A stretch of 64,000 nt of DNA from a virus. Below the pieces are notes generated by a model. That model was not told the origin of the DNA and did no database searches. It worked only from the letters and a program-made list of their open reading frames with translations. Shown one piece after another: positions 6,582 through 8,840 of the stretch; within the stretch, counting starts at the first letter, position 1; each line of letters begins with the position of its first letter. The stretch lies in IMG/VR virus record IMGVR_UViG_3300027902_000006, positions 76,479 through 140,478 of that record; one strand, given 5' to 3'. A program made the position numbers and the translations under genes.

Positions 6582-8840
6582 TCAACTACAATTACTCCAG
6601 CCACACCAAGGGCAAGTAGAACATCCTCCGCCCATATCCAATAATTCCCCACAGTCGGGGCACATGGGGCTGGCGATGGGAATCGAACCCGCAACCTGAG
6701 CCTTACAAGGACTCTGCTCTTCCGTTGAGCTACGCCAGCCTAACTTCCTTTTACGAATGACCTTAGCAATTCCGTCCGGAGGAGAAAGTATAGCTTGGCC
6801 ATCATGCCAACCCGTCTTCTCACCGATAATTCCTCGGAGTTGCTTCTCTACTTCTTCCCATGTAGCTCCCTTGTTAAGAGCCAGAGTGGCGAGTCTTCCT
6901 ATCGCTGCGTTCATGGAAGATAGAGTACGTCCTTCTTTGCTGATTTGCGACCAAAGTTCTTTATACCCGGTCTCTGGGTCTTCAAAGAGATGGACATAAA
7001 GCGTACCTTCTCCTGTTCTGACTCTATCCCTAGAACCTTCTAAGTAGTCGGGAGGTTCACCTGGGCCAAAGATCTTTTCTAAGAGTTCAACCTCGTCTCT
7101 CGTTTGCTTCACTTCTACGGCTTCTTTTTTATTATTTATGATTGTAACCCGAACCGCCTCTGCTACTACTTCGGGAGAGACAGTTCCCTTGACAGCCGGA
7201 GATTTAACTTCTCTTATATCAGTTTGGGCCTCTTCTTCTCTACTTCCTTGGCGATAGAAGGTTAGTCCTTTACAACCAAGGACATATGCAAGTTTAAATG
7301 CAGCATCAACCTCCTTGACAGTGGCGTCATGGGGAGCATTGATGGTTTTGCTTACCGCATTATCAACATGCTTCTGAAACGCTGCTTGCATCTTCACATG
7401 AGATACAATAGGAACATCTTTAGATTCTATCCAATAGGGGGGAATGGGATACTCTACACAAGCGTCAGTAAAACTCATGACAAATTCTTCGTACAACGGA
7501 TGCATTACAATCAAAGTATCGTCAATAGCCTTCTTCTTAAATTCAAAAGCGAAGACTGGTTCAATTCCACTACTACATCCTGCTATGAGTGATAATGTTC
7601 CAGTAGGAGCTATCGTAGTACAGGTTCCATTACGTCGTCCTAATACTATCTCACCTTTTTCAATACCTAACTGTTTAGAGTAGTCATGAGCAGTAGTATT
7701 GATAATCCTCATGACGCGTTCGGCAAGTTCTAGACTCCCACTACTGCCATAGGTTATTTTCAACTTAATTAACATGTCAGCCCATCCCATTACTCCAAGA
7801 CCGACCTTACGAAACTTCTTTGTCTCACGTTCGATCTCGGAGATAGGATAGTTATTGACATCTATAATATTGTCCAAGAATCGGATAGCTACTCTGACGA
7901 CTTCTTTTAGTCTCTCTGTATCAATAGATCCATCTACGACAAAGTTACTGAGATTGATACTTCCTAGTGTACAACTTTCTGAGTTTGCTAAAATTTGTTC
8001 CCCACACGGGTTACATCCTCGTAGAGTCTGATAATCACGTAACGGATTTAGCCTATTTATTGTATCAATAAATAAAAGACCCGGTTCTCCATTTTCCCAT
8101 GCACCATTAACGAGATATTCCCACAATTGTAAAGCAGGTATCGTTGATGAATCTACTCCATTGAATCGTAGTGTCCAAGGCGTATCTTTTCCACTTAGAC
8201 AATTCATAAAGATATCACTCATACAGACTGAGATATTGAAATGTCTAAGTTTCCCCTCTTTTTCTTTACAAGTAATAAATTTAATGATGTCTGGATGATC
8301 TATGTCTAGGAGGCCCATCTGTGCCCCTTTACGAACGCCTCCTTGTTCGATGACTTCTCCTACTACAAAGTCGAAAACGTTCATGAACCCCAATGGACCA
8401 CATGAACGCCCCTTTGTAGTAGAAATTAACGATCCTTCTGGTCTAAGCCATGAAAAGTTATATCCTGTGCCACCACCATAGGCTTGAACCTCCACTGCAT
8501 TCTTCAATACGTTGAAAATAGATTCTCTACTATCTTCTATATCAAAATAAAAACAGGCACTAAGATTCCCATTATTAGCTCCTGCGTTTCGTAAGCATGG
8601 GGAGTTTGGTAAGAAGTCTAAACTTGACATTATCTCATAGAATTTCATAGACCATTCGGCAAAGAGTATTCCGTCTTTCTCAGCACTCGCTACATGCTTC
8701 GCTACTCGCCAAAACATCTCATTTGGAGTTTCTATAACGTTATCATTCTCGTCTTTAACGAGAATCCTGTTTTCCAGAACTCTAATCGCGTTTTCAGATA
8801 GTCTCATAGTAGGGGAAGTGCCCGTGTATTCAGACCCCAC
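6582..8840 (-). CDS. nrdJ: class II (B12-dependent) ribonucleotide reductase
   Basis: FLPNSP, LSACF, GGGTG, NPCGEQ, CTLGSINL, TIAPTGT, AVSKTIN motifs; C-terminal TSCPD-like domain and CxxC..CxxC zinc ribbon. Confidence 0.93.
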   Translation of the reverse strand: MGSEYTGTSPTMRLSENAIRVLENRILVKDENDNVIETPNEMFWRVAKHVASAEKDGILFAEWSMKFYEIMSSLDFLPNSPCLRNAGANNGNLSACFYFDIEDSRESIFNVLKNAVEVQAYGGGTGYNFSWLRPEGSLISTTKGRSCGPLGFMNVFDFVVGEVIEQGGVRKGAQMGLLDIDHPDIIKFITCKEKEGKLRHFNISVCMSDIFMNCLSGKDTPWTLRFNGVDSSTIPALQLWEYLVNGAWENGEPGLLFIDTINRLNPLRDYQTLRGCNPCGEQILANSESCTLGSINLSNFVVDGSIDTERLKEVVRVAIRFLDNIIDVNNYPISEIERETKKFRKVGLGVMGWADMLIKLKITYGSSGSLELAERVMRIINTTAHDYSKQLGIEKGEIVLGRRNGTCTTIAPTGTLSLIAGCSSGIEPVFAFEFKKKAIDDTLIVMHPLYEEFVMSFTDACVEYPIPPYWIESKDVPIVSHVKMQAAFQKHVDNAVSKTINAPHDATVKEVDAAFKLAYVLGCKGLTFYRQGSREEEAQTDIREVKSPAVKGTVSPEVVAEAVRVTIINNKKEAVEVKQTRDEVELLEKIFGPGEPPDYLEGSRDRVRTGEGTLYVHLFEDPETGYKELWSQISKEGRTLSSMNAAIGRLATLALNKGATWEEVEKQLRGIIGEKTGWHDGQAILSPPDGIAKVIRKRKLGWRSSTEEQSPCKAQVAGSIPIASPMCPDCGELLDMGGGCSTCPWCGWSNCS
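6665..6739 (-). tRNA. tRNA-Thr(TGT) nested inside nrdJ
   Basis: GCTGGCG/CGCCAGC-C-CCA, GCTC/GAGC, GAGTC-CTTGTAA-GGCTC, GCGGG-TTCGATT-CCCAT. Confidence 0.85.

Follow-up and report, generated by a model that had tools for sequence, protein, structure and literature searches.

Can a complete tRNA gene lie inside the reading frame of an essential enzyme, and can the same bases serve both? This question is raised by nrdJ, the gene for a class II (B12-type) ribonucleotide reductase (RNR) of a virus, which contains a tRNA-Thr(UGU) on its coding strand. The DNA analyzed, hereafter the window, is a stretch of 64,000 nucleotides (positions 76,479 to 140,478) of the IMG/VR virus record IMGVR_UViG_3300027902_000006, which comprises 140,478 bp, has a G+C content of 43%, and is estimated to be 92% complete. 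The analysis indicates that the stretch in question very probably encodes both a tRNA and a part of the protein. To the fuller reading, namely, that a working tRNA gene and a set of linker codons occupy the same bases and that the nrdJ mRNA is a tRNA precursor with two fates, we assign a probability of roughly 70%.

A tRNA-Thr in the open frame of nrdJ

ARAGORN detected a tRNA-Thr(tgt) at positions 6665-6739 of the minus strand, a segment of 75 nt that includes the CCA and that matched all 71 positions of the Rfam model RF00005 at 59.1 bits (gathering score, 29). The cloverleaf has acceptor, D, and anticodon stems of 7, 4, and 5 bp, respectively, the anticodon loop CUUGUAA, and the T arm GGUUCGAUUCC; its only irregularities are one G.U and one C.A pair, both in the T stem. 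The nrdJ open reading frame (ORF; 6582..8840, minus strand; 752 codons followed by TGA) stays open through this tRNA, which extends from position 2 of codon 701 to position 1 of codon 726, so that the A of its CCA is also the A of the ATG for Met726. The protein reads ...KRKL-GWRSSTEEQSPCKAQVAGSIPIASP-MCPDCGELLDMGGGCSTCPWCGWSNCS around the tRNA and ends with MCPDCGELLDMGGGCSTCPWCGWSNCS. With 60% G+C, the tRNA forms a compositional island within a gene of 42.5% G+C. An earlier note on the window had described a complete same-strand tRNA-Thr in the open nrdJ frame; ARAGORN, the Rfam score, and the list of ORFs bear this out, and the peptide read through the tRNA is exactly as that note had written it.

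Pfam recognizes in the 752-amino-acid protein the domains Ribonuc_red_lgN (PF00317; residues 13-91, 4.4e-23), Ribonuc_red_lgC (PF02867; from residue 94, 1.1e-107), and TSCPD (PF12637; residues 605-697, 8.2e-10). The catalytic part (7236..8804, minus strand, like all nrdJ segments given here) is composed of the all-alpha N domain (residues 13-91) and the ten-stranded barrel and extends to the conserved YRQGSRE motif (residues 529-535). It is followed by linker 1 (residues 536-604; 7029..7235), which connects the barrel to TSCPD and is variable in length in the alignment. Since TSCPD corresponds to residues 605-697 (6750..7028), the tRNA is located between this domain and a Cys-rich tail, in linker 2, where it provides codons 701-726 (GWRSSTEEQSPCKAQVAGSIPIASP-M). 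The tail, a six-Cys zinc finger that forms part of the domain termed CRD, comprises residues 727-752 (6585..6662), with Cys727, 730, 740, 743, 746, and 751; the TGA stop (6582..6584) comes directly after it, and the AGGAG and ATG of the next gene are found about 40 nt downstream.

The assignment to class II is based on the all-alpha domain and the ten-stranded barrel recognized by Pfam and on a tree position among B12-dependent RNRs, and the TSCPD fold together with the array of six conserved Cys identifies an NrdJd-type CRD. By homology, the enzyme would be active and dependent on adenosylcobalamin. An AlphaFold2 model of the last 224 residues reached predicted local distance difference test (pLDDT) values above 90 for TSCPD (90-97 over most of the domain) and fair values of 78-92 for the zinc ribbon of the tail. 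Linker 1 scored between 54 and 64 (its last residues about 73), and the 10-residue blocks that hold the tRNA-coded residues had means of 67, 49, and 78 and were almost devoid of secondary structure. This low confidence over the tRNA-coded stretch, the lowest of the model, fits a flexible tether.

Two observations concern the surroundings of these segments. Linker 1 of the window gene contains about 30 extra residues at positions ~561-597 (7050-7160, minus strand; VVAEAVRVTIINNKKEAVEVKQTRDEVELLEKIFG) that are absent from all relatives of its clade; AlphaFold2 predicts a helix there with low confidence, and the segment is not a tRNA. A gene a short distance downstream of nrdJ (5726-6364, minus strand) encodes a beta-barrel protein of the outer membrane (PF13505, 2.4e-11), the N terminus of which resembles a signal peptide; this hints at a Gram-negative host.

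Embedded tRNAs in related phage nrdJ genes

A scan of IMG/VR with the NrdJ protein yielded 49 nrdJ loci. ARAGORN identified a tRNA within the nrdJ match in 2 of these, both among the three closest relatives (L001 and L002), and no tRNA inside nrdJ in the other ~46 viral loci. Large protein collections gave three further relatives, two of which stood out by a linker peptide resembling a translated T arm and were then confirmed on the DNA. In L001 (5047-5122, Rfam score of 66.4 bits) and L072 (6152-6226, 68.5 bits), the tRNA is Thr(UGU) as in the window and is likewise located between TSCPD and the Cys tail; the L072 gene additionally carries inteins. A tRNA-Gln(UUG) is found in this same linker in L050 (3419-3492, 55.4 bits), and a tRNA-Asp(GUC) is present between the barrel and TSCPD in L002 (4735-4813, 68.1 bits). 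The embedded tRNAs measure 75 nt (window), 76 nt (L001), 75 nt (L072), 74 nt (L050), and 79 nt (L002). All five are on the coding strand and encode CCA, and each of the five genes keeps its frame open as far as the conserved tail. The DNA analyzed contains 33 tRNAs in total, and a long ORF on the same strand extends across these five but across none of the other 28. The spanning of the tRNA by an ORF is thus more than chance.

In a maximum-likelihood tree, all five genes belong to one nrdJ clade that is set apart by a long stem (Shimodaira-Hasegawa-like approximate likelihood ratio test support of 100). The clade also includes the tRNA-free L003, L051, and P0123, as well as P0125, P0269, and P0270, for which the protein sequences contain no T-arm-like peptide, so that they also appear to be tRNA-free. 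The window gene and L001 are sisters, and L072 groups with the tRNA-free L003 and L051; this placement indicates that the slot was gained, lost, or swapped several times. Its occupant changes between Thr, Gln, and none, with Asp in the other linker. The best NrdJ match in GenBank phages was only ~31% identical, and the clade therefore has no cultured member. A profile of the C-terminal region of the clade retrieved from IMG/VR only three contigs already found; from metagenomes 10 loci, none of which had a tRNA and three of which duplicated known loci; and from 185,579 prokaryote genomes no relative and consequently no prophage or host lead. A DNA pattern composed of the T arm, CCA, and CPDC codons matched six loci in IMG/VR, none with a tRNA in the ORF, and these were discarded as chance matches. 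The sole match of a blastn search was a 70-nt alignment of tRNA to tRNA.

When the three Thr tRNAs were placed on the cloverleaf, 96.8% of the pair cells were standard pairs, and 9 of the 21 pairs were changed on both sides, including three in the acceptor stem and four of the five in the anticodon stem. None of 500 column shuffles reached a value as high, and only 35-54% of the positions paired when the 3' partners were slid by 1-3 columns. All five anticodon-stem pairs vary among these copies, yet the loop UUGUAA, G1-C72, and C2-G71 are invariant. The Thr copies also show the conserved loop features of tRNAs, namely, C/U-U-UGU-A-A with U33 and a purine at position 37 and the T loop GGTTCGA(T/G)TCC, and CCA is found in all five embedded tRNAs. 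The Thr tRNAs of the window and L001 are 80% identical, whereas the Gly(UCC), Pro(UGG), and Gln(UUG) tRNAs that stand free in these two phages reach 68-73%, and the linker that flanks the tRNA cannot be aligned between the two genes.

The peptide shows no such conservation. A difference of one base in the length of the D loop causes the 5' half to be read in different frames, giving GWRSSTEEQ... in the window and AGVAQQVER... in L001, and the only recurring tRNA-coded peptide is (A/G)GS(I/N/S)P, which derives from the T arm. Since the fold is conserved and the peptide is not, the constraint is on the RNA, and the protein needs only an open frame. Judged by these substitution patterns, the tRNA fold, the anticodon loop, and the CCA are kept by selection across the relatives.

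Further data are in line with a functional tRNA-Thr. Threonyl-tRNA synthetases of Escherichia coli and Thermus thermophilus recognize G1-C72, C2-G71, G35, and U36, and the discriminator base is not known to be a strong determinant; the three copies have the G-C pair at 1-72 and the C-G pair at 2-71 together with the anticodon UGU. ARAGORN found seven tRNAs in the window, all on the minus strand, and a free-standing cluster on the same strand as nrdJ is found about 4 kb downstream of it; in L001, such a cluster is located ~2.4 kb downstream of nrdJ. The genome of the window and L001 have a set of four tRNAs in common, namely, Thr(UGU), Gly(UCC), Pro(UGG), and Gln(UUG); in that genome, as in the 8.3 kb of L001, ARAGORN detected no Thr tRNA other than Thr(UGU). 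ACA or ACG accounts for 45% of the Thr codons of the phage. Promoter-like sites were at the level of shuffled sequences (9 found, 9.1 expected), giving no sign of a separate promoter for the tRNA. There were 6 terminator-like sites versus 3.1 expected, including a weak one at 6795-6810, within nrdJ and just upstream of the tRNA. As a working tRNA, it would be expressed, processed at its 5' and 3' ends, modified, and aminoacylated.

On the protein side, the six Cys residues downstream of the tRNA are invariant or nearly so among 53 homologous C-terminal regions, and their spacing in the window (3-10-3-3-5) is nearly that of Stackebrandtia nassauensis NrdJd (3-10-3-3-6). In the latter enzyme, mutation of each Cys to Ala, or deletion of the domain, abolished the activity with tris(2-carboxyethyl)phosphine, a reductant that depends on the tail, and spared that with dithiothreitol (PMC5704485). 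As judged from these data, the Cys tail is a real and required part of the enzyme, and the Pfam and alignment data agree with the earlier note in placing the tRNA in a variable linker upstream of a genuine six-Cys tail. Neither L072 nor L050 contains an in-frame start codon (ATG, GTG, or TTG) between its tRNA and the CPxC motif, and the tail of these proteins must therefore come from reading through the tRNA. No start led by a Shine-Dalgarno sequence was found between the tRNA and CPxC in any embedded case; the Met codons that precede the tail in the window and L001 lack one. Translation of the tail as a product of its own, initiated at the ATG at 6665, which the earlier note had named as an outcome that would speak against dual coding, thus fails as a general mechanism. 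The comparison of the linkers of relatives that it had proposed showed that both frame and pairing are conserved, and its claim of dual coding is strengthened by five related nrdJ genes in which a tRNA is present, the frame is always open, and the fold is kept by compensatory changes.

The nrdJ genes of this clade also accommodate other insertions. Those of L051 (3001-6201), L072 (2092-6399), P0123, and P0269 contain in-frame inserts that raise the protein length to 1066, 1435, 1169, and 1001 amino acids, respectively, as compared to about 750. Intein_splicing, LAGLIDADG, or HNH domains were matched by Pfam in L051, L072, and P0123, and the insert of P0269 is intein-sized and without an intein match. 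Going by these inserts, the nrdJ genes of the clade are a hotspot for several kinds of in-frame insertion. The TSCPD domain of a tRNA-free relative (L051:5539-6198, also in L054) has an 11-residue Cys-rich insert, GNCPKCGHKNC, that is unique in the clade.

Proposed fates of the transcript and rival explanations

Taken together, these data are best accommodated by a mechanism in which the nrdJ mRNA serves as the precursor of the tRNA-Thr. Ribosomes that arrive before the RNA is folded or cut would read the 75 nt as 25 passenger residues of the linker and would then continue into the six-Cys tail, resulting in the full-length enzyme. On untranslated or decaying transcripts, the cloverleaf would fold, and host RNase P together with 3' trimming would free the tRNA, leaving a 5' fragment without a stop codon that encodes a tail-less NrdJ. 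From the sequences compared here, we would expect the tRNA to be transcribed within the nrdJ mRNA, cut out by RNase P, and aminoacylated, and the transcripts to be divided between the two fates. An either/or outcome for each transcript and a coupling of the deoxynucleoside triphosphate supply to tRNA processing, as suggested in the earlier note, are likewise hypothetical. Control of the nrdJ mRNA lifetime by RNase P would be a possible regulatory role, but the data can be explained without it. The earlier note had argued that excision would cut off an essential tail. The requirement for the tail is supported, but the cost of its loss may be softer than assumed, as in the enzyme studied in PMC5704485 an intact tail can pass electrons to the neighboring subunit of the oligomer. 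Tail-less subunits would accordingly not necessarily be dead weight, because the intact tail of a neighbor could reduce their active site.

A stand-alone RF-1 domain protein of 122 amino acids with a GGQ motif is encoded within the tRNA cluster of the window (1732-2100, minus strand; PF00472, 2.7e-17). It is similar to ArfB/ICT1 and has no obviously basic tail. It is possibly a ribosome-rescue factor, which would be relevant if excision generates non-stop mRNAs, and one may speculate that it deals with stalled ribosomes together with the weakly PTH2-like protein described below.

As to the origin of the arrangement, phage tRNA genes were most likely inserted or relocated into the indel-tolerant linkers of a tightly packed genome, and only in-frame, stop-free insertions would have survived. 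The tRNA-Gln within the nrdJ of L050 shares 66-68% identity with the tRNA-Gln copies that stand free in the window and L001, which are 68% identical to each other; since unrelated tRNA pairs reach 71%, its relocation from a cluster is no more than possible. Integration at an attP site in the tRNA was considered unlikely: no tyrosine integrase (PF00589) was found in the 140-kb genome (92% complete), as compared to 14 of 14 positive control genomes, in a search that did not extend to serine recombinases.

Several observations weigh against the reading of a working tRNA gene within linker codons. The window copy has the two irregular T-stem pairs mentioned above, and its Rfam score is below those of the Thr tRNAs of L001 and L072. 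The discriminator base of the embedded Thr tRNAs is C or U, and A is the usual discriminator of bacterial tRNA-Thr. Z-scores of the minimum free energy, for the tRNA alone or with flanks of 35 nt, were unremarkable in four of the five embedded tRNAs, which is common for tRNAs; the exception was L001 in its context (z of -2.4). The acceptor and T arms persisted in four of the five, to which we give little weight. The sample is small, with five embedded cases versus about six tRNA-free members of the clade. Furthermore, the three Thr tRNAs could be separate acquisitions, in which case the compensatory changes would be differences between intact tRNAs; even so, the differences indicate that each of the Thr tRNAs is intact.

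The tRNA could alternatively be a cis-acting, tRNA-shaped element of the mRNA that provides an RNase P site or a block and thereby times nrdJ decay, uncouples the downstream genes, or pauses ribosomes between domains. The occurrence of Thr, Gln, and Asp identities in nrdJ linkers is what would be expected if shape alone mattered, and RNase P-dependent repression has been proposed for selC in selB (PMC8124441). However, shape alone does not call for an invariant UUGUAA, CCA, G1-C72, and C2-G71 while the anticodon-stem pairs vary; Thr(UGU) belongs to the tRNA set shared by the genome of the window and L001, with no other Thr tRNA detected in that genome or in the 8.3 kb of L001; and over half of the clade manages without any such element. 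We therefore regard this explanation as unlikely. It is quite unlikely as well that the tRNAs are selfish or neutral insertions, tolerated in the linker and decaying toward ordinary linker codons. Turnover of the slot by gains, losses, and swaps in a shallow clade, linkers that differ greatly in length, and the mismatched T stem of the window copy would be compatible with such decay, as would faint traces in L003 and L051 that may stem from the 5' part of a tRNA-Gln. In the tRNA-free linker 2 of L003 (4621-5352) and L051 (5539-6198), ATATTCCAATGGTTGAATG and GGAGGTCCAACAGTAGATG, respectively, resemble positions 4-25 of the L050 tRNA-Gln and are placed equivalently, after a WP(I/V)/NIP motif. 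Their z values were 3.6 and 2.8 (matched by 2 and 3 of 200 shuffles, in 16 tests); with these weak statistics, they may be fossils of a lost tRNA. Decay is opposed by the completeness of all five embedded copies (55-68 bits, with CCA), by the strong covariation among the Thr copies, and by the Thr tRNAs of the window and L001, which are more alike than the free-standing tRNAs of these two phages even though no alignment of the surrounding linker is possible.

A further alternative is a split gene, the tail (in L002, TSCPD plus tail) being translated alone, in the window from the ATG at 6665 and perhaps as a leaderless message after 3' processing of the tRNA. This ATG begins at the last base of the tRNA, a Met directly precedes CPDC in L001, the downstream piece of L002 was called alone by a gene caller (P0122), and the CRD is a separate gene in NrdJa+b enzymes (PMC5704485). 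Nevertheless, we consider it very improbable, since none of the five genes has a stop codon closing its upstream part, the starts are either missing (L072 and L050) or without a Shine-Dalgarno sequence (window and L001), the CCA of the tRNA needs the A of the window ATG, and in vitro a CRD expressed on its own failed to restore the activity of the deltaCRD enzyme (PMC5704485). Least probable of all is that the tRNA is removed like an intron and the ends are religated, or that the arrangement results from misassembly. Introns and inteins are classically found in RNR genes, and nrdJ genes of this clade carry inteins. However, three of the five tRNA lengths (74, 76, and 79 nt) cannot be divided evenly by three, and two genes would lose their frame if the segment were excised short of its CCA, so that the frame into the tail is kept only if the tRNA is translated; in addition, Rfam gave no match to an intron or ribozyme at the site. 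An intein or self-splicing intron in the window gene was also rejected, as its NrdJ contains no Pfam intein or Hint domain. The five genes come from separate assemblies of different samples, made with different pipelines and deposited in three repositories (IMG/VR, ENA, and Logan), which rules out an assembly artifact.

Other overlaps in the window and relation to known systems

The earlier note had counted three genes in the window that overlap tRNA structures, a count that could not be maintained. The tRNA-like cloverleaf proposed at 4952-5027 in a Mom gene was not called by ARAGORN and had no Rfam match at an E value of ≤1; the Mom-family DNA-modification gene itself is real (4375-5070, minus strand; PF25680, 102 bits). 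The PTH2-like case involves an overlap of only 10 nt. A tRNA-Gly(GCC) at 886-960 abuts, without a spacer, an amber-suppressor-type tRNA(CUA) at 961-1036 (both minus strand), and an ORF of 119 amino acids (1027-1386, minus strand), with a weak PTH2 match of 18.3 bits that is below the cutoff, has its stop 10 nt inside the suppressor tRNA. TAG ends 24 of the 108 long ORFs of the genome, which is therefore not globally TAG-recoded.

The closest precedent is selC, the gene for tRNA-Sec, which is placed inside the selB ORF of Alphaproteobacteria by a bioinformatic prediction (Mukai 2021, Int J Mol Sci 22:4605; PMC8124441) and is described there as the first tRNA nested in a bacterial ORF. As in nrdJ, a whole sense-strand tRNA with CCA is present in an open ORF and translated as extra residues, the arrangement is kept among relatives (with remnants in some in the case of selC), and an either/or fate that leads to a non-stop mRNA has been proposed. 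In contrast, selC encodes an extension of the C terminus that is not followed by any domain, whereas the nrdJ tRNA is internal and followed by the conserved Cys tail. Furthermore, selC and SelB are functional partners, whereas no link to RNR is known for tRNAs of the Thr, Gln, and Asp types, and the nrdJ case occurs in phages, with a swappable identity (Thr, Gln, or Asp) and the use of two linkers. The full-text literature search, with a coverage outside of which most subscription journals fall, gave no account of tRNAs nested in phage ORFs.

Another parallel is the 60-nt tRNA-Lys inside cox1 of Armadillidium vulgare mitochondria (Doublet et al. 2015, RNA Biol 12:1159), which, as far as it is presented where PMC8124441 cites it, also lies wholly in a coding region of a compact genome in direct orientation, with one transcript giving either mRNA or tRNA. 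To the same extent, the mitochondrial tRNAs are truncated and aberrant, whereas those of nrdJ are canonical bacterial-type tRNAs of 74-79 nt with CCA, in the case of the window in a 140-kb phage. In P. aeruginosa (Pseudomonas aeruginosa), the class II RNR is split into NrdJa and NrdJb (PMC5704485). The break between these corresponds approximately to linker 1, the site of the tRNA-Asp of L002, and this junction thus tolerates interruption; however, NrdJa and NrdJb are two genes, each with its own stop and start, whereas the window nrdJ is a single uninterrupted ORF. The embedded tRNAs resemble RNR inteins and group I introns in being in-frame or phenotypically silent insertions in an RNR gene, but there is no RNA or protein splicing, the insert stays as a linker, and the product under selection would be the RNA. 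Free-standing tRNA genes and clusters are found in T4, T5, and many large phages. The nrdJ tRNA of the window belongs to the same kind of set, with U34 anticodons that read A- and G-ending codons, but those genes are intergenic, whereas the nrdJ tRNA shares its bases with codons.

Overlap on the same strand between a structured RNA and a protein-coding sequence is very rare outside organelles, and the prediction of selC in selB is the sole published bacterial case that we found. Such cases are systematically hidden in databases, since pipelines that bar overlaps between coding sequences and tRNAs truncate or split the genes concerned. This is illustrated by L002:4814-5397, which is on record as a separate protein of 198 amino acids (P0122, VSANSEETLF...) that starts exactly after the tRNA-Asp. 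It is conceivable, though doubtful on present data, that tRNAs in linkers are a selected and general device of phages, in which the linkers of essential genes act as swappable slots and cleavage by RNase P acts as a post-transcriptional valve on the ratio of enzyme (and hence of the deoxynucleoside triphosphate supply), tRNA, and tail-less protein. With a canonical tRNA placed between required parts of an essential enzyme, maturation of the tRNA and full-length translation would compete for one RNA, and the locus offers a simple, testable system for ribosome traffic versus RNase P on a single transcript. For this phage clade, the data indicate that disordered linkers can accept an RNA gene of 75 nt and that the tRNA occupying such a slot is exchanged over short evolutionary distances.

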